Of a DNA stretch of 64,000 nucleotides, positions 1 through 35,946 are shown in pieces. This DNA comes from Clostridia bacterium. GTDB lineage: Bacteria; Bacillota; Clostridia; Christensenellales; UBA1242. The stretch lies in NCBI GenBank assembly GCA_017501645.1, contig JAFVWN010000065.1, positions 17,240 through 81,239 on the forward strand, read 5' to 3'. The stretch's first letter is position 1, and each line of letters starts with the position of its first letter. A program made the position numbers and the translations under genes. The notes under the pieces were generated by a model that was given only the letters and a program-made list of their open reading frames with translations, searched no databases and had not been told where the DNA came from.

Positions 1-1
1 T

Positions 2-352
2 ATGCAACAAACAATAACCGCCCTAAAAGAAGCTGAGGAACACAACGGCCCTTCAATTGTTATTGCCTACTGTCCTTGCATTAACCACGGCACAGACCTT
101 TCTAAAACAAATGACCAACAAAAAGATGCTGTTCTTGCAGGTTACTGGAATTTATATAGATACAATCCAAATACAGGACTTACTATTGACCCGCCTGCAC
201 CAAATATGGCATATGTAGACTTCATAAAAACACAATCAAGATACTTTACTCTCGCAAAGAGCAATCCTGAAACAGCAACAAGATTATTTGCCAATGCAGA
301 AAGTTATGCGAAAAACAGATTCAACAAATATGTAAAACTTGCACAAAAATAA
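2..352 (+). CDS. nifJ: Pyruvate:ferredoxin/flavodoxin oxidoreductase, C-terminal fragment (gene begins before window)
   Basis: EAE..GPS.VIAYCPCINHG and AV.AGYW.LYRYNP motifs typical of the PFOR C-terminal TPP domain. Confidence 0.9.
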   Translation: MQQTITALKEAEEHNGPSIVIAYCPCINHGTDLSKTNDQQKDAVLAGYWNLYRYNPNTGLTIDPPAPNMAYVDFIKTQSRYFTLAKSNPETATRLFANAESYAKNRFNKYVKLAQK

Positions 353-387
353 GCAAGAATTTTACAAATAAATAAATTTTACACAAT

Positions 388-418
388 AAAAAGGAACAGT
401 TTTAAACTGTTCCTTTTT
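388..418. terminator. Bidirectional intrinsic terminator
   Basis: aaaaaggaacagttt-t-aaactgttccttttt inverted repeat between convergent nifJ and rplI. Confidence 0.8.
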
Positions 419-427
419 ATATTAAAT

Positions 428-871
428 CTATGCCTTAACAACTGTTAAGTTGATGCTACCGTTTACACCTTTATATAGCTTAACTGGAACTTTGTATTCT
501 CCAGCAACCTTGATTGGTGAAGATAAATCAATTTTCTTCTTATCTATATCATAACCCATTTTTGCAAGTTCTTCTGCAATCTCTTTTGGACCAACAGAGC
601 CAAAAGTTTTACCATTCTCACCCATTTTAACAGCAAGTGTAACCATAATGCTCTCAAGTTTCTTAGCGAGAACTTTTGCAGCTTCTGTTTCTTCTTTAAT
701 TCTTTTTGCTTCAAGAGCTTTTTCTTGAGCATTAATATTCAAGTTTCCAGTGCTTGCAGGTACAGCAAGTTTATTTTTTAGTAAAAAGTTATTTGCATAA
801 CCATCACTAACATTAATAATGTCGCCCTTTCTACCTTGACCTTTAACATCTTTAGATAAAATAACTCTCAT
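428..871 (-). CDS. rplI: 50S ribosomal protein L9
   Basis: [30 protein letters not shown]; GKTFGSV; GGAGG RBS before ATG at 871; TTGACT-17-TATAAT promoter at 931-903. Confidence 0.95.
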
Positions 872-1046
872 TTTTATAGCCTCCAAAATACTTAGTATCT
901 TTATTATACTAATCAAACCCCATAAAGTCAAACAAAATTAAAACTCACATAAAAAAGACCTAGTTACAAAGATTGTTTGGATTTATTCTAACATTTTTGC
1001 ATAATCATTTTTAATTCTTAATTTTTCATTTATATAATAACTATCA

Positions 1047-1230
1047 ACAATTCATCATTTATCATTCTTCTTTCATCACTGCAAAACTGCCAAGTTTTGG
1101 CTTATACTCTCCCCCTTTGGTGCAAGCACCACCTTTCCCCCGTCCGGGGGCACCAAGATAATTGAAGTTTGTTTTTAATTGTATATTAACATTCCCTAAT
1201 TCATCATTCTTCATTTTTCATTCATCATTG
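1047..1230. repeat. Downstream cassette copy 1: heptamer tandem repeats (TCATTCA/TCATTCT-like) flanking a GC-rich palindromic core (1108-1159)
   Basis: Homologous, in the same orientation, to 63257-63437; core ctccccctttggtg..caccacctttcccccgtccgggg.caccaagat. Confidence 0.85.
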
Positions 1231-1234
1231 TATA

Positions 1235-1262
1235 AAAAAATAGAGGTCACCCTCTATTTTTT
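1235..1262 (-). terminator. Hairpin abutting the stop codon of the DGR-like target gene (terminator, possibly also a DGR homing hairpin)
   Basis: aaaaaatagagg-tcac-cctctatttttt, 4-nt loop. Confidence 0.7.
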
Positions 1263-2742
1263 ATATACTAATTCTTAATGCCGGACGCACGCCGTAATTG
1301 CAGTCCGTGACATAATAAGTGGTGGAGAGGAAGCCACCAGCAGTAACATCGCAGGCAGAAGAAGCCAACGGACCCGCCGAACGGGTCCAGTAATAGCAGG
1401 TTCCTCCACTTGGATGTGTTGCTGTTACATATGAGGTGTTTGTAAACTTATAACAATAATTCCCTAACGTAAAGTCCGTTGGACTACATAGCATTTTTGT
1501 GTTAGTGTTTGTAAATAATCCTGCACTATTATAGTAGTCCCAATATGATAAACAATATATTTTATCTTCGGTTGTAACACCTGTCGTGTTGCTTGTTGCC
1601 GTATCATAATTTCCGGTTATATTATTCCCCACTGTCGTTGTAGATATTAATTCTTGCTCGCCACTTGTAAATGCACTTGTATAGAATGTGCCATTGAGCC
1701 ATGTTCGAAGTTCGCTGTTTATCCATTGATTTGGGTCATCACTGGTTCCCGCTGTTCCGTCTGCATCTGTGTTACTTGTATAAAATCGTATATCCGCTGT
1801 TAGTGCTAAATAACTCATTATTTCAAGTTCGCTATCACTTCCGCTTGTATATGCTTCATAGTTTAAGATTATCCACCTTATTGGTTCTACTTTGAACCAT
1901 GTATATTCTGTTGTACTAGATGACCCCACAGTTTCCCCGTTTAAATATGTGTAACTGCTACTATACACATATCTATTTCCTCTTGCATATATGTTTCCAT
2001 CTGTATACTGATATGCTTGCCATGTCCTTGTTCTTACTGTATATGTATTCACTGCTGTTGGACTATTACTATTATACCAACTCTCTAAGGTTGTATTCAT
2101 GCTTGAACCAACATATGTTTGCGGATAGTTTCCAAAATCCACATAGTACATATTCAATCCAGCACTTGGATTTCCCACAGCAATAGTGTCCGTTGATATT
2201 GACACATTTGTTACTATCTCTACACTATTCTCATCTATTACTGTATCTGCACTTATATTTACTATTGCTCCTTCTTCTGCATAAATTGATGGACCATAAT
2301 TTGCAGTGTTTCCTGTTATTGTCCCTGCATTTATATTACAAGTTCCTCCAGATGACACATATATTGCTCCTCCATAAGTTGCACTACAACCTGTTAGTGT
2401 TCCTCCTTCCATTGTAAAAGTCGCTCCCTCACTTATAAAGATTGCTCCTCCATATGTGTTTGTATGGTTTTGTATTGTTCCTCCAATCATTATAAATGTT
2501 GAGTCTGGCTCAAGAAACACTGCTCCGCCTTTATAACTTGTGCTTTGTCCTTGTGCAGGAGATGTTTCATCTGCCATTGCAAAATAATTTGCTTCATATC
2601 TTGTTTTATTGACTGGAACCTTTTCTTTTTCTACTTTTTCAGTTTTATTACCGTTTGAAATCATAAGAAAAGACATACATAAACTTGTTATGCACATTAT
2701 TGGTAATATTATTGTTAATAATATCTTAAATCTTTTCTTCAT
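1261..2742 (-). CDS. Secreted/membrane-anchored surface protein: GGA(I/V)-repeat beta-helix-like stalk plus C-terminal DUF6273-like (C-type-lectin-like) domain; probable DGR target
   Basis: N-terminal signal/TM segment; GGAVF/GGAIF/GGAIY repeats; VEPIRW, SELRTWLN..FY..AF, EDKIYCLS, YWTRSA...GVRPALRI motifs. Confidence 0.8.
   Translation of the reverse strand: MKKRFKILLTIILPIMCITSLCMSFLMISNGNKTEKVEKEKVPVNKTRYEANYFAMADETSPAQGQSTSYKGGAVFLEPDSTFIMIGGTIQNHTNTYGGAIFISEGATFTMEGGTLTGCSATYGGAIYVSSGGTCNINAGTITGNTANYGPSIYAEEGAIVNISADTVIDENSVEIVTNVSISTDTIAVGNPSAGLNMYYVDFGNYPQTYVGSSMNTTLESWYNSNSPTAVNTYTVRTRTWQAYQYTDGNIYARGNRYVYSSSYTYLNGETVGSSSTTEYTWFKVEPIRWIILNYEAYTSGSDSELEIMSYLALTADIRFYTSNTDADGTAGTSDDPNQWINSELRTWLNGTFYTSAFTSGEQELISTTTVGNNITGNYDTATSNTTGVTTEDKIYCLSYWDYYNSAGLFTNTNTKMLCSPTDFTLGNYCYKFTNTSYVTATHPSGGTCYYWTRSAGPLASSACDVTAGGFLSTTYYVTDCNYGVRPALRISI
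1279..1395 (-). other. Putative DGR variable region VR1
   Basis: Versus 63560-63676: no indels, 33 mismatches in 117 nt, 29 at codon positions 1-2 with third base conserved. Confidence 0.8.
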
Positions 2743-2806
2743 TCTCGCCCCCTATTAAATGGCTCAATGTAATTGGAATTAGTTTTTACATTTATGCAAT
2801 AAATAT

Positions 2807-2915
2807 CCGCAATTCATCATTTATCATTCTTCATTCATCACTGTTTTTAAACCCTTCGGGTTTTGTTCCTGCGGAAAGCGAAAACAAGTTTCGCCTTCAT
2901 TCTTCATTCATCATT
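2807..2915. repeat. Triple-hairpin element (2849-2894) flanked by heptamer repeats, in the presumptive 5' leader of 1261-2742
   Basis: aaaccc-ttc-gggttt / ttcc-tgc-ggaa / gcgaaa-acaag-tttcgc; close homolog at 63400-63510. Confidence 0.85.
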
Positions 2916-2955
2916 AAAAAAACAAATTATTTTTGCTTTCTCTCTTCCTGATACT

Positions 2956-2987
2956 AGTCTACCCCCCCCCCCCCGATTTTTTGTCAA
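2956..2987 (-). promoter_or_regulatory. sigmaA-type promoter with G13 tract in the spacer (candidate phase-variable promoter)
   Basis: Minus strand TTGACA-aaaaatc-G13-TAGACT; spacer 20 nt. Confidence 0.75.
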
Positions 2988-3065
2988 GCAATTTAAGTTC
3001 TTATTTCAAAAATATTGAATAAAAACATTATGTTTTTTACAAACTATCATAAAAAGGAGATAATT

Positions 3066-3353
3066 ATGTTTGATTTAAAATGTAAAAGACAAGGTTGTAA
3101 ATTCAATCAAAATTGTAACTGCACAGCACACAATGTAAAAGTTGACAACACCACTAAATGTGAAACCTATGAAGACAGTAAAAATCCACAAATGCAACAA
3201 GATAAAATACCTCAACCACCAACAAGAAAAAACATCTGTGTTTCTTGTGATGCAAAATGTCTTTTTAATCAAGACCACACCTGCAAAGCCAATGGAATTA
3301 CAGTAATAACAAATGACTTTGCCCCTGAATGCTGTACATTTCTACCAAAATAA
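3066..3353 (+). CDS. Small Cys-rich protein with two DUF1540-like repeats
   Basis: Two C..(x)C.FN...C.A..(I/V).V......C.T(Y/F) units; AAGGAG RBS. Confidence 0.7.
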   Translation: MFDLKCKRQGCKFNQNCNCTAHNVKVDNTTKCETYEDSKNPQMQQDKIPQPPTRKNICVSCDAKCLFNQDHTCKANGITVITNDFAPECCTFLPK

Positions 3354-3421
3354 AAAGAGCAATTGCTCTTTTTTTGTTACTTTTTTGTTTAAAAATCAAC
3401 AACATTGTGCAAAAATTATAT

Positions 3422-3649
3422 ATGATAAAATATATTTCTGTAATTGCAAAAATGTCTAGCACTGGAAAAGTTTCACCGCTTTCAATCATTTGGGAAGACG
3501 GCAGAGAATTTTCTATTGATAAAATTATTGATTGTCGTCCTAAAGCATCCACAAAAGGCGGTGGAAAGGGTCTTCGCTATACTGTTAAAATTAAAGGTCA
3601 AGAAAAGTATTTATTCTTGAACGAATACCTTTGGTTTATCGAATTATAG
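3422..3649 (+). CDS. Small conserved protein of the type found next to dinB in Clostridia
   Basis: KY(I/V).V.A.....G...P..I.WEDGR.F.ID.I.D.R..AS.K.GG.G.RY...I.G pattern; convergent with dinB. Confidence 0.65.
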   Translation: MIKYISVIAKMSSTGKVSPLSIIWEDGREFSIDKIIDCRPKASTKGGGKGLRYTVKIKGQEKYLFLNEYLWFIEL

Positions 3650-3730
3650 ACCTTTTTGCTAGTTCCAAACACTAATCTCACATCTTTAATCTTATACAAT
3701 TTCTTTGTCTATTTTTTAATAAATTTATTT

Positions 3731-4987
3731 TTACCAGCTATCAACTTCTCCTCCAGTTTTCTCTTTACTTAAAGCACCTAAATCACCCTTTATATTCATT
3801 TCTGCAAGATGGCTGTCTGTAAGCATAATGCCTTTATTTATAATGGTTCTGCCAAACCTATCTCGCATATGTTCAATTGTTTCTTCAAGCTTGACTAGTT
3901 TGTTTCTTTTTGTATTATCTGTGCAAAAATCAAGTTGTTCTTGGTCTGTGAAATCACTTACAGACACACCGAGTCCTCTTATTAACAAACCTCCCCACGA
4001 AAAATGCTTTTTAAACAACGAAAAAGCCTCATTTGCTATTTCCGTACTAAGACAAGTGGGTCTATCAAACTTTTTAGTCCTCATAACACTATGTAGGTCA
4101 TTTGTAGTTATTGTGAGAGAGACCGTTCTCGCAAACTTAAAACCGTCATTTTTCATTCTCGAACAAACACTTTCGCTTAAAAGAGTTAAAAGAGCATAGA
4201 CATCATCATCTGTTACAATATCCCTATAATAAGTAATGCTATTACCAACAGACTTTATTTCCTCCCTATCCTCATATGCTCTCACAGGGTCTTGGTCTTG
4301 CCCCCTTGCATACGCTTGAAGAACCTCACCCCACTTACCTAGTTTACTCACAAGAATTTTTTTGCTGAATGTTGCAAGTTCACCAATGGTTTTTATTGTA
4401 AGTTTTTCTAATTTCTCTTTCGTTGCTCTTCCAACATATAAAAGGTCACTTGCTGGAAGTCTCCACACCATTTGCTTAAAATTGTCTTTATCAATAATTG
4501 TAACGGCATCCGGCTTTTTTATATCCGAACCAAGTTTTGCAAAAACCTTATTAAAACTTACGCCAATTGAAACGGTAAGTCCAATTTCTTCCTTTACTCT
4601 TTTTCTAATTTCTTCCGCTATAAGATACCCATCACCATTGTGTCTTGGAGAAGTTGTAACATCAAGCCACGCCTCATCAATACCAAAGGGTTCAACTTGG
4701 TCTGTATAATCAAGATATATCTTTCTTACAGCTCTTGAATACTTTAAATACATATCGTGTCTTGCTGGAACACAGACAATCCCAGGACAAAGTTTTTCAG
4801 CTTCAAAAATAGGCATACCTGTTTTAACACCCGCCTTTTTTGCCAGCATATTTTTTGCCAGCACTATACCATGCCTATCCTCTTTCTTCCCACAAACAGC
4901 AACAGCTTTACCCTGAAGCTCTGGGTTTAATAGACACTCAACAGACGCATAAAAATTATTCAAATCCGAATGCAATATTGTTCTCAT
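3731..4987 (-). CDS. dinB: DNA polymerase IV (Y-family)
   Basis: ILHSDLNNFYASVE, GIDEAWLD, SIGVSFNKVFAKLGSD.KKPD. Confidence 0.95.
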   Translation of the reverse strand: MRTILHSDLNNFYASVECLLNPELQGKAVAVCGKKEDRHGIVLAKNMLAKKAGVKTGMPIFEAEKLCPGIVCVPARHDMYLKYSRAVRKIYLDYTDQVEPFGIDEAWLDVTTSPRHNGDGYLIAEEIRKRVKEEIGLTVSIGVSFNKVFAKLGSDIKKPDAVTIIDKDNFKQMVWRLPASDLLYVGRATKEKLEKLTIKTIGELATFSKKILVSKLGKWGEVLQAYARGQDQDPVRAYEDREEIKSVGNSITYYRDIVTDDDVYALLTLLSESVCSRMKNDGFKFARTVSLTITTNDLHSVMRTKKFDRPTCLSTEIANEAFSLFKKHFSWGGLLIRGLGVSVSDFTDQEQLDFCTDNTKRNKLVKLEETIEHMRDRFGRTIINKGIMLTDSHLAEMNIKGDLGALSKEKTGGEVDSW

Positions 4988-4993
4988 AGTTTT

Positions 4994-5022
4994 ATTATAT
5001 ATCAAACAAATGTTCTAAGCAA
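4994..5022 (-). promoter_or_regulatory. dinB promoter with LexA (SOS/Cheo) box in the spacer
   Basis: TTGCTT-17-TATAAT on minus strand; GAAC-ATTT-GTTT at 5015-5004 matches the Firmicute GAAC-N4-GTTC box with one mismatch. Confidence 0.75.
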
Positions 5023-5160
5023 GTGTTTTTTACCATTTTTCATATTTGTTTTTAACAAAAATTCATAAAAAAATTAAAAAAGGTTATTTTTTTAGGCTCA
5101 AAAGATTTTATTTTTCAAAAATACTATGATATAATACTAGTAAATATGGAGGTTTTACTC

Positions 5161-5904
5161 ATGGAACAATATGTTGCAAATTCTTTTGACAAAAACTATG
5201 CAGCCGCTTGGAGTGCTGACCAAGGTGGCTTTTCTTACCAATTGGCACAAAATTTACTTAACTATTTAAGTAGAAATAAAATCGTAGCAAAATCTTGTCT
5301 TGATATTTGCTGTGGTACTGGCGAGTTTTTAAGTTACTTTGCAAAAGCTGGTCTTGCTTGTGCCGGTACTGAAGTTGCTAAGAGTATGGTTGAATATTCT
5401 CTTGCAAAATACCCAAACATTGCTTTTACCCTTGCAAATAAAATTAACGACATCCCTGTAAAAGGCAAATTCGATATTATCACTTGTAACCACGATGTTA
5501 TCAATATGCTTGAAAGATTTAGCGAGTGGGAAGCAATGTTTAAAGAAGTTCACTCTACTCTTAACAAAAATGGTATCTTTATGTTTGACTTCTATACTAA
5601 GAAGAAACTTGAGAACTGGAACGAAGTTGTGTACGAATCAAGTGAAGCTATGGACCATGTTCGCTCTATCAAAAAAGGTATGGATAACAAGTGCGTAATC
5701 GAAGAAATATATTATGTAAAAAATAAAGAAGACCTTTATAATAAAACTTTTGACATTATGGTTGAATCTTATTTTGAAAATGAACAAATTTTTGACGCTC
5801 TTAAAAAAGCCGGTTTCAAAACTATAGAAATTTGTGATTTCTCTCTTGAAAAAACATCTAACTATAATGACAGAAATCGTATCCACATCATTGCTAAAAA
5901 GTAA
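5161..5904 (+). CDS. Class I SAM-dependent methyltransferase
   Basis: CLDICCGTG motif I; FDIITC; L..NGIFMFD. Confidence 0.9.
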   Translation: MEQYVANSFDKNYAAAWSADQGGFSYQLAQNLLNYLSRNKIVAKSCLDICCGTGEFLSYFAKAGLACAGTEVAKSMVEYSLAKYPNIAFTLANKINDIPVKGKFDIITCNHDVINMLERFSEWEAMFKEVHSTLNKNGIFMFDFYTKKKLENWNEVVYESSEAMDHVRSIKKGMDNKCVIEEIYYVKNKEDLYNKTFDIMVESYFENEQIFDALKKAGFKTIEICDFSLEKTSNYNDRNRIHIIAKK

Positions 5905-6052
5905 TTTTTTAAGCCCCTACTTTTGTAGAGGCTTTTTCTTTTCTTCCCCACTTTACTCCACATTAAAAATATATGGTATTGACTTTTTATTCGTTTAGTG
6001 ATACACTATGCAAACTCAAAACAAGAAAACATTTGAGGAGAAAAGGATTATT

Positions 6053-18374: not shown

Positions 18375-20348
18375 TTATGCTATTTTAGTTTGCTTTTTAG
18401 GCAATGCAACATACTCCTTTTCTTCAAGTATCACATTTTGTAGATAAGAAGTATCTATTTGATAAGAATTACCGTTTCCTAGAGTCTCAATTTCTACACC
18501 GCTTATCTTTTCACTGTTTGGTGCAAAAGTCAACCCAACTGCAGATTTATACTGCTCGAGCGTATAGCCGTAGTTAACAGTTAAAATTCCACCACTACTA
18601 CTACTATAAAAATACCAGCATTGTCCCCTACCGTTTGGCACACTTTCAGCATTTGCAACATCTGTATATATTACCAACTCGCTTGAACAATATGAAAATG
18701 GTGCCATATAAGGATTGTCCGCCACAATTGTCTCGACAGTGTTTGGTATATAAATGCTTTCAAGTCCTGTGCAATTATTAAACGCCCTCCTCTCTATACT
18801 AGTTACACTATTACCTATTATTACTCTTGTTAAGCCTATGCAATTATGAAATGAACCTTCTCCTATACTTACTACACTGTCATCTATTATTAAACTTGTT
18901 AATCCCTCACAATCACTAAATGACAAATATCCTATACTTGTTACACTATCTGGTATTGTCAAACTTCCGGTTAATCCACTGCAAGAAGAGAATGCATAAT
19001 CACCTATACTCATTACACCATCCGGAATTACTAAATTTCCTGTAAATCCAGAGCAAAGAGCAAATGTATATTCCTTTATATTCGTTACATTGTTAGAAAT
19101 CGATAATGTTCCCGTCATCCCCATGCAATTATAAAATGCATATGAACCTATACTTGTTAAATTATTTGGAATTGTCAAACCTCCGGTTAATCCACTACAA
19201 CCAGCGAATGCAGAATTTCCTATACTTGTTAAATTATTTGGAATTGTCAAACCTCCAGTTAATCCACTACAACCAGCGAATGCAGAATTTCCTATACTTG
19301 TTAAATTATTTGGAATTGTCAAACCCCCGGTTAATCCACTGCAATAAGAGAATGCAGAATTACCTATACTTGTTATATTGTTATGAATATTTATACTCTT
19401 GATATTACAGTTATAATCACCCAAATCCGTATCAAAACAAGCAATAGGAACTTCTGTTATCTCACTTGAAAATGTTATATTTACCGAACCACAAGAATTA
19501 AATTTTCCTTTGAATGCAAAATCTGCAATTGTTGTTACTGTTTTTCCATCATACTCTCTTGGCATTACAAGATTAAACTCTGTACCACTATAAGAGACTG
19601 CACTGTTTTTAGTTATTTTATATCCGTCAGCACCATCTGTTGTAAATGTAAACAAACTTGGGTCTACCGTTCTTGTATATAAATTTACATCTCCATTAGA
19701 TAAATCTATAGTATTATTTTTTATTGTTGTTCTTAGTTCACTATCCAAAAAATACCCACAACAAGATTCATAATCAAGAGGCATTTCCTCTTCATAAATA
19801 GTATATGTATCGCCTGTCTTTTTCATTGTTTTGGCAGGAGTTGTTGCATCATCTACATAAATATTTATATTTGTCCCTGGGCCAATTACGATTGCACCAT
19901 CTTCTGCGTAAATATGTAAGTCTTGATCTTCTCCACAACCACTAAAACCGTCTGCGTTGTTTTCGTAATTGAAAGTTCCACCACTTTCAACATAAACAGC
20001 ACCACCCAAATCAGCAACACAGTTTTCTATTGTTCCGCCGTCAAAATTGAATGTTCCTCCATTTGCAACATAAACAGCTCCACCATTTGTTGCACTGCAG
20101 TTTTTAATCTTTCCGCCAGTCATTGTAAAGGTTGCACCTTCTCCAACATAGATAGCTCCACCATTATTTCCAACGCTATTAGAAATTGTTCCGCCCGCCA
20201 TATTAAAAACAGCATTCTCTTCGAGAACAATTTGGCTTGAATACGCAAACGCATTAACATTGCTATAATTATTTGAAGCAAAAGAAAAGCCTAGGCACAT
20301 TATACCCAGTGCAAATACAAAACTTAAAATTGCTTTTAGTTTTTTCAT
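18375..20348 (-). CDS. Secreted BspA-like leucine-rich-repeat (TpLRR) surface protein with N-terminal GGA(I/V)YV stalk
   Basis: Signal peptide; GGAIYV/GGAVYV repeats; many LTIP..(L/V)TSIG..AF..C.GLT repeats. Confidence 0.9.
   Translation of the reverse strand: MKKLKAILSFVFALGIMCLGFSFASNNYSNVNAFAYSSQIVLEENAVFNMAGGTISNSVGNNGGAIYVGEGATFTMTGGKIKNCSATNGGAVYVANGGTFNFDGGTIENCVADLGGAVYVESGGTFNYENNADGFSGCGEDQDLHIYAEDGAIVIGPGTNINIYVDDATTPAKTMKKTGDTYTIYEEEMPLDYESCCGYFLDSELRTTIKNNTIDLSNGDVNLYTRTVDPSLFTFTTDGADGYKITKNSAVSYSGTEFNLVMPREYDGKTVTTIADFAFKGKFNSCGSVNITFSSEITEVPIACFDTDLGDYNCNIKSINIHNNITSIGNSAFSYCSGLTGGLTIPNNLTSIGNSAFAGCSGLTGGLTIPNNLTSIGNSAFAGCSGLTGGLTIPNNLTSIGSYAFYNCMGMTGTLSISNNVTNIKEYTFALCSGFTGNLVIPDGVMSIGDYAFSSCSGLTGSLTIPDSVTSIGYLSFSDCEGLTSLIIDDSVVSIGEGSFHNCIGLTRVIIGNSVTSIERRAFNNCTGLESIYIPNTVETIVADNPYMAPFSYCSSELVIYTDVANAESVPNGRGQCWYFYSSSSGGILTVNYGYTLEQYKSAVGLTFAPNSEKISGVEIETLGNGNSYQIDTSYLQNVILEEKEYVALPKKQTKIA
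19147..19362. repeat. Three near-identical 72-bp tandem repeats (24-aa LRR units)
   Basis: cctatacttgttaaattatttggaattgtcaaacc recurs at 19147, 19219 and 19291; first two copies differ at one base. Confidence 0.9.
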
Positions 20349-20491
20349 TCCTTTTTTCCGCCTTTTTCTTTAGTTTAAACCTTTACACATATTATTATAT
20401 ATAATATTTTCAAAATCTCCAAATAAAATTAAACACTATTTTAATTTTTTTTTATTTTCTCCTCTATGCAACTTTTCCTAGTATAAAGACA

Positions 20492-20668: not shown

Positions 20669-20702
20669 AGTCTACCCCCCCCCAAAAAAAATTTTTTATC
20701 AA
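20669..20702 (-). promoter_or_regulatory. Homolog of the poly-G promoter (A5-T8-G9 spacer)
   Basis: Minus strand TTGATA-aaaaa-T8-G9-TAGACT, spacer 22 nt; flanks ctagtcta and tcaagc....taagtt shared with 2954-2999. Confidence 0.65.
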
Positions 20703-35586: not shown

Positions 35587-35946
35587 TGGTGGAGGCGGCG
35601 GGAATCGAACCCGCGTCCAAACAACCTCGTAAATACCCTTCTCCGTGCCACAGTCAACTGTTAATGGGGTCGCCTAAAATCTAAAGTTGACTAAATCTTT
35701 TAGGCTATTCACATCTAAATCTCGCAACCCACTCCAATGTGAACAAAAGTAAATTGCACCCTACTTTTTGTTTGACAAGTAACCATATCCAGTAAGCCTA
35801 TACAGTTACCCGTACTGCATTAATTAAGCAGCAAGAGCTAAATTTTCGTTAGCGTTTATTTTTTGACACCGATTTTAAGCTTCTTTGTCCCAAGCTAGCA
35901 CGCTTCTAATATTTACTCATTTGCCTGTCGAAACCAGTACGCCCCC
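35587..35946 (-). ncRNA. ssrA: tmRNA; tag peptide (A)ANENLALAA* at 35853-35824
   Basis: 5' GGGGGCGTACTGGTTTCGAC; 3' T-arm GCGGGTTCGATTCCCGC and CGCCTCCACCA; G3:U pair; directly downstream of smpB. Confidence 0.96.

Follow-up and report, generated by a model that had tools for sequence, protein, structure and literature searches.

The question raised by this locus is whether an uninterrupted run of 13 guanines, set between the two hexamers of a promoter that faces a predicted surface-protein gene, acts as a mutable switch of that gene's expression. A sequence-only reading of the same DNA had proposed a phase-variable promoter here, and had coupled it to diversification of the gene product by a DGR. 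The window, by which is meant the whole 64-kb stretch of DNA that was analysed (GC content 32.7%), lies on contig C65 of a genome assembly of 1.46 Mb, with 33% GC and 67 contigs, which is 97.9% complete. Spo0A is encoded in this genome and the organism is, therefore, an endospore-forming member of the Bacillota. In other words, the host is an uncultured, spore-forming gut bacterium of the Clostridia with a small genome.

On the plus strand the tract appears as C13 (2962-2974). In the minus-strand sequence, a -35 hexamer TTGACA (2982-2987) is followed by a fixed A/T-rich part of the spacer, AAAAATC (2975-2981), then by the G13 homopolymer, which is the mutable part of the spacer, and finally by a -10 hexamer TAGACT (2956-2961) in which the T, the A and the final T of TATAAT are retained. 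The spacer amounts to 7 + 13 = 20 nt, where G10 would make it 17, and the ATG of the gene at 1261-2742 (minus strand) lies 213 nt past the end of the -10 hexamer. Direct reading thereby bears out the earlier description of these elements, of the 20-nt spacer and of a promoter pointing at this gene from some 210 nt upstream. The remark that G13 is very unusual in such AT-rich DNA also holds, since the window contains just two G/C runs of at least 7, the C13 and a C9 at 20675-20683, both in the same context. Indeed, a search with TTGAYA-N5-14-G9-TAGACT gives two matches in the window and none in 100 dinucleotide-preserving shuffles (mean 0.00), such that the poly-G promoter architecture exceeds chance. 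What characterises a repeat-tract phase-variable promoter, a homopolymer of at least about 8 between recognisable -35 and -10 hexamers, is therefore present at the locus. A consensus scan of the 324-nt intergenic region gave no other gene-facing site with a spacer of 16-18 nt.

On the other side of the tract lies a divergent DUF1540 gene for a 95-aa Cys-rich protein (3066-3353, plus strand), for which the consensus scan gives only TTTACA-N17-GATAAT at 3036-3064, overlapping its ribosome-binding site. Beyond it, about 750 nt from the tract, is a gene for a Y-family (DinB/IMS) DNA polymerase (3731-5005, minus strand), a closeness that is probably coincidental.

The gene that the promoter faces encodes a 493-aa protein, identified from its translation and a Pfam search, and it has a good ribosome-binding site, GGGGGCGAG. 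The N-terminus of the protein is an anchor, basic and hydrophobic; repeats of the type GGA(I/V)(Y/F) are present, and a DUF6273 domain (Pfam E 1.4e-18, residues 332-492) lies at the C-terminus. The protein is predicted to be membrane-anchored and surface-exposed; the anchor together with the DUF6273 domain and the predicted exposure are what would be looked for in the product of a phase-variable promoter. A 5' leader of about 205 nt is predicted (2743-2955, minus strand), with a putative start near 2949. It holds multicopy hairpin and 'GATGAATGA' repeat modules, and summed contig depth over 2864-2910 is 129-687, as against 5-20 in the unique flank. The leader fold is unremarkable (z-score -1.42), and an Rfam scan of the window at gathering score returned no known RNA family in the leader, its sole match being a tmRNA (RF00023, 140 bits, 35587-35946, minus strand). 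A repeat search of positions 1-6000 places copies around the gene at 2784-2843, 1022-1081 and 1171-1230. The modules, in which words of the GATGAATGA type are combined with a short, variable hairpin and with TCCG(T/C)AGGAAC, flank the gene on both sides (2784-2910, 1022-1081 and 1171-1230), recur at about 137 sites genome-wide (AATGATGAAT has 137 occurrences) and, in one orientation or the other, occupy the leaders in front of many genes for surface proteins.

The tract is one of a family. Genome-wide, the lengths of G/C runs are bimodal: there are 33 runs of 6, two of 7 and one of 8, and then 2, 2, 2, 4 and 2 runs at lengths of 9, 10, 11, 12 and 13, respectively (n=12). The dip at 7-8 followed by the rise at 9-13 is the signature of selection keeping tracts long. 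Eleven of the 12 runs of at least 9 share one arrangement, which consists of TTGA[CT]A, 6-14 A/T-rich nt, G9-13 and a -10-like hexamer. The -35 hexamer is TTGACA in ten of these cassettes and TTGATA in the eleventh, while the hexamer that abuts the tract is TAGACT, TAGAAT or TAAAAA in all 11; the spacers measure 17, 17, 18, 18, 18, 19, 19, 20, 20, 22 and 25 nt. The cassettes are scattered over seven contigs, each gene having its own mutable tract, as in a multi-locus contingency repertoire. No short, locked cassette was found by a tolerant search down to G5, which returned one unrelated G5 site only.

The cassettes are directed towards surface genes. The downstream ORF can be scored for nine of the 11, the remaining two running off contig ends, and all nine scorable ORFs start with MKK, followed by a basic stretch and a hydrophobic segment, with a VGLVGCS-type lipobox in four; every scorable downstream gene, as judged from its sequence, encodes a surface protein or lipoprotein. 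A Pfam scan took in eight of the nine (the ninth, at C34:1157, is truncated where its contig stops) and returned DUF6273 twice, LRR_5 twice, collagen with GDSL twice, Big_3 once and a collagen-like match once. The DUF6273 proteins belong to the present locus and to C34:70517; the BspA-type LRR_5 proteins to C7:350 and C65:37914 (20669-20702 in the window); the collagen-like lipoproteins with a GDSL hydrolase domain to C15:28990 and C61:52257; the Big_3 lipoprotein to C61:47584; and the remaining collagen-like lipoprotein to C35:33956. The closest tract-bearing paralogue of the gene studied here is that at C34:70517, with 92% identity over the first 140 residues; its cassette has the same -35 hexamer and the same seven nucleotides AAAAATC, but G11 and TAGAAT, giving a spacer of 18. 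A paralogue that is closer still, C65:6155 (93.6%), is without a tract and has TTGACA-N17-CAAAAT in its place, and some 40 paralogous genes have no tract.

The second cassette of the window, TTGATA-A5T8-G9-TAGACT (20669-20702, minus strand, spacer 22), stands upstream of a gene for a 657-aa BspA-type leucine-rich-repeat surface protein (18375-20348, minus strand; G000:C65:35614-37587; LRR_5, E 1.3e-87), and a fixed promoter, TTGGAG-N17-TATAAT, is interposed between the two. The same holds at C7:350, so that at both cassettes with long spacers (25 at C7:350, 22 at C65:37914) a fixed promoter lies nearer the gene; not every cassette, therefore, need be the working promoter. Spacers of 22 and 25 are far beyond the working range, and these two cassettes are either decayed or in need of a large contraction. 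The fixed promoter is part of a conserved 30-mer with 12 copies in the genome (for example upstream of C24:40002 and of C23:15126, and at about 20360-20400 in the window), and is the promoter of many paralogues of the beta-helix, LRR or DUF6273 type. Two cassettes have paired homopolymers, T8 then G9 at 20669-20702 and T9 then G11 at G000:C7:330-366. About 10-20 nt upstream of the -35 hexamer, eight of the 11 cassettes carry a conserved block, in which TTAAAATC or TTGATTTT comes after GGGG or CCCC and which could be an UP-element or a regulator site; the block is absent at the present locus. The twelfth long run, a G9 at G000:C59:38645-38653, is the sole long G tract outside a promoter spacer. 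This run stands 7 nt upstream of the ATG that opens a lipoprotein gene (MKTKSLIKNKLL...SGC), at the Shine-Dalgarno position, and is preceded by TTGCAA.

The length of the tract differs between samples. Logan contigs from four gut-metagenome runs of four studies (X1, X2, X3 and X6) were compared over 2300-3700, the run data being assembled contigs and hence consensus lengths per sample. In X2 and X3, which come from two different studies, one contig each spans 2888-3700 with no substitution and with exactly two tract bases missing. The allele is thus G11 with a spacer of 18, and the other 811 bases are the same as in the window. A difference in length within otherwise identical DNA, as is looked for in a phase-variable promoter, was therefore found, and indicates that the tract is mutable in nature. 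The contig of X1 has 13 C's and goes no further than the far edge of the tract (2962), and that of X6 ends inside it (2969); these breaks could reflect either poor coverage of poly-G or heterogeneity, and the contig ends at 2962 and 2969, together with thin cover at 2723-2769 and 2911-2957, were excluded as evidence of heterogeneity. The comparison of tract length across strains that the sequence-only reading had called for accordingly yields, at contig level, G13 (window and X1) against G11 (X2 and X3), where the X2 and X3 contigs do not differ in length and a single strain may be behind both, such that 13 versus 11 may represent a single independent difference. It should be borne in mind that homopolymer lengths are error-prone in short-read assemblies. 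Within the genome, the near-identical lipoprotein cassettes at C15:28990, C61:47584 and C61:52257 differ only in tract length (12, 12 and 13). Two exact-pattern scans of JGI metagenome contigs, the first requiring both flanks around a gap of variable length and the second just one flank, gave no stretches, which has no bearing on variability. In the 5' part of the gene (2322-2587), X1, X2 and X3 each have two contig variants, one identical to the window and the other with 12 differences in 131 nt, these being either co-existing strains or cross-laid paralogues.

The cassette is also present beyond this genome. Ten other species of the genus, 14 other genera of the family and 16 other families of the order were scanned for TTGACA-N5-9-G9, and it is present in six, three and one of them, respectively, while a reversed-pattern control matched in one genome only. 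Among 21 distinct tract loci retrieved from relatives, TAnnnT directly follows the tract in 13, and 12 of 15 downstream ORFs have, by eye, the N-terminus of a signal, an anchor or a lipoprotein. With a stricter pattern applied across the class, eight of 400 other genomes have one or two sites each, as compared with seven in the source genome and none in the controls; it is in the source lineage that the number of copies has risen to about a dozen. A scan of all prokaryotes, with one genome per species, gave at least 121 stretches, the matches listed coming from uncultured Clostridia, Lachnospiraceae, Treponema and other spirochaetes, Streptococcus and others. Among the 122 matches listed to TTGACA-N-G9+-TAGA, hexamer position 6 is T in 114 (TAGAAT in 78) and the spacer is 16-19 in 93, from which it follows that this is a genuine and widespread promoter form. 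The locus itself is not syntenic in the sister species, since the DUF1540 neighbour has homologues in all ten same-genus genomes but there is no G/C run of at least 6 within 420 nt upstream of them at any of the ten loci examined. In one same-genus assembly, contig L157:1-50 (G009:C15:1-50) begins with …AGATGTGTATAAGAGACAG, which we take to resemble a sequencing-library adapter and which would presumably be contamination of that assembly.

The likely explanation of these features is a slipped-strand expression switch or dimmer that works through spacer length, of the porA or tp0126 type. The G13 run would be the variable part of the spacer in a sigma-A-type promoter (TTGACA/TAGACT) driving the DUF6273 surface-protein gene. 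Slipped-strand mispairing at replication would lead to gain or loss of G's, the spacing of the -35 and -10 hexamers would shift with it (17 nt for G10, 18 nt for G11 and 20 nt for G13), and RNA polymerase would use the promoter better or worse depending on that distance. To judge by spacer length, the window's allele, G13, is probably one of low expression or OFF, and that of the other samples, G11, probably corresponds to ON. Transcription starting near 2949, expression that depends on tract length, reversibility and switching within a population would all be expected of such a promoter. With regard to the earlier claim of phase variation, what stands is a near-consensus pair of hexamers that faces a surface gene, its recurrence at 11 of the 12 long runs and the difference between G11 and G13, while a low or OFF state of G13 would follow from spacer length. 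Taken jointly, 11 cassettes, each able to mutate independently and placed before at least three kinds of surface protein (DUF6273, BspA-type LRR and collagen-like lipoproteins, the last kind including two with a GDSL hydrolase domain and one with Big_3 domains), would give rise to a combinatorial, heritable but reversible surface repertoire across the population. Some other small-genome bacteria leave slippage unrepaired. Both MutS and MutL are present in this genome, however, such that slippage at the tracts is not left unrepaired and loss of mismatch repair is ruled out as a cause of hypermutability; Neisseria also has MutS and MutL.

Other readings of the tract must be weighed against this one. 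It could be mutable and yet no working switch, as part of a repeated intergenic cassette that has spread together with REP-like leader repeats, with the gene transcribed from elsewhere. The multicopy leader modules, in their depth and in their 137 genomic copies, would suit such an origin, as would the long leader, the two cassettes with spacers of 22 and 25 that have a separate fixed promoter beside the gene, and the roughly 40 paralogous genes that manage without a tract. This account is nevertheless improbable, in that each of the 11 cassettes is directed at either a surface-protein gene or the end of a contig, conservation is seen in the hexamers and variation in tracts and leaders, the intergenic region offers no alternative gene-facing site with a suitable spacer, and the 122 matches listed carry a promoter signature in their position-6 T and their spacers. 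It is similarly unlikely that the G run acts otherwise than by spacer length, for example through a G-tract-binding protein or through an unusual DNA structure that impedes or eases promoter opening, an interaction that tract length would then tune. In all cases it is the tract that takes up the room between two good hexamers, right up to the -10, and spacer totals fall at 17-20 in nine of 11 cassettes despite fixed parts that differ (6-7 nt). In favour of a bound protein, the G4/C4 block and TTAAAATC-like sequence just upstream of the -35 in eight cassettes could be a regulator site, although the present locus lacks the block; and in T. pallidum tprE/G/J, as PMC7864442 describes them, a CRP homologue acts jointly with poly-G length. 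That the tract is an artefact of sequencing or assembly is scarcely credible. Short-read chemistry is known to handle poly-G poorly, the contigs of X1 and X6 break off at the tract, and four of the 11 cassettes are no more than 1.2 kb from the end of a contig; against this, the tract has unique sequence to either side, runs from at least three studies assembled it independently, and one fixed promoter context recurs at 11 loci and in related species.

There remains the proposal that on/off switching is combined with DGR mutagenesis of the same gene. The association of this DUF6273 gene with a DGR in the sequence-only reading was reasonable, as this fold, a C-type-lectin-like domain, carries the variable region in the phage DGR targets described in PMC10743442 (tentaclins), and the protein does have a target domain of this type at the E value given above; moreover, the gene belongs to a divergent paralogue family. 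The other components of a DGR did not appear. PF00078 (RVT_1), the reverse transcriptase, has no match at E <= 0.001 in the 97.9%-complete genome; blastn of the whole genome at word size 9 gave no template repeat with adenine-specific mismatches and no template-like partial copy, but full-length paralogous genes only, with all matches to the 3' end of the gene lying inside other DUF6273 genes; and the repeat search of 1-6000 gave leader repeats only, with no TR/VR-type repeat within 6 kb. The DGR part of the sequence-only reading is accordingly rejected, reverse transcriptase and template repeat both being missing, and the combined model is very unlikely. While the phage DUF6273 targets are diversified by a retroelement, the diversity of the DUF6273 family here comes from paralogues.

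Returning to the spacer-length switch, the mechanism as such is a textbook one, and the locus is an ordinary instance of it. Repeat-tract promoters are well known from pathogens such as Neisseria, Treponema and Mycoplasma, and phase variation in gut commensals has been studied mostly by way of invertible promoters and methylation; a search of the literature outside subscription journals found no published description of repeat-tract promoters in gut Clostridia. What is new, then, is the count of 11 cassettes over at least three protein families, the G13 and G11 alleles, the distribution over genus, family and class, and the rejection of the DGR link. A wider proposition, on which we find the balance to be even, is that this reduced-genome, spore-forming lineage of gut Clostridia holds an expanded repertoire of promoter tracts, with at least 11 independently switchable surface genes in 1.46 Mb, up to 2^11 states, and a modular TTGACA-Gn-TAGAAT cassette placed before unrelated families and present in most of the sister species examined. 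If true, this would amount to an antigenic or adhesive mosaic in a commensal Firmicute resembling that of Mycoplasma Vlp, and to a major source of strain-level phenotypic heterogeneity, unseen by metagenomics and missed in gut surveys centred on invertons. Were all 11 cassettes to switch, host immunity, phages and substrates would meet many different surfaces in one strain; this diversity would be hidden by consensus assemblies with a single tract length, and the lengths would need to be taken from accurate reads.

Among known systems, the family-wide arrangement recalls Mycoplasma (Mesomycoplasma) hyorhinis, in which a family of surface lipoproteins, the Vlp, is encoded in a small genome with a promoter-spacer homopolymer for each gene, giving ON/OFF mosaics. 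The Vlp tracts are poly-A and belong to one clustered paralogue family, whereas the tracts here are poly-G, lie on seven contigs and precede at least three protein families. A gut commensal, Bifidobacterium breve UCC2003, switches a pilus on and off by slippage in a G tract, as reported in PMC9187656. The likeness lies in the gut commensal, the G tract and the surface structure. The B. breve tract is, however, said to lie within a coding region, where it makes a frameshift switch, unlike the promoter spacer seen here.

A close anatomical counterpart is porA of Neisseria meningitidis, a surface-protein gene in which, according to PMC3639595, the -35/-10 spacer is occupied by 9-13 G's whose number sets expression, this being high with 11G, 2-fold lower with 10G and 13-fold lower with 9G. 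That effect was measured, whereas here it is predicted from the DNA; and porA is a single such locus for that gene in a Gram-negative pathogen, as opposed to 11 cassettes before several unrelated families in a member of the gut Bacillota. In Treponema pallidum, too, poly-G is found in the promoters of several surface-protein genes (tp0126/tpr), and in the account given by PMC7864442 the tract of tp0126 lies between -35 and -10 with an optimum of 17 nt. As presented in that source, poly-G length varies within isolates and reporter data exist, where the present case is built on comparison between sequences, and the tracts of tprL and tprE/G/J immediately precede the start site and are not clearly spacer tracts. 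T. pallidum is, moreover, a spirochaete pathogen, and the repertoire described here belongs to a spore-forming gut bacterium.
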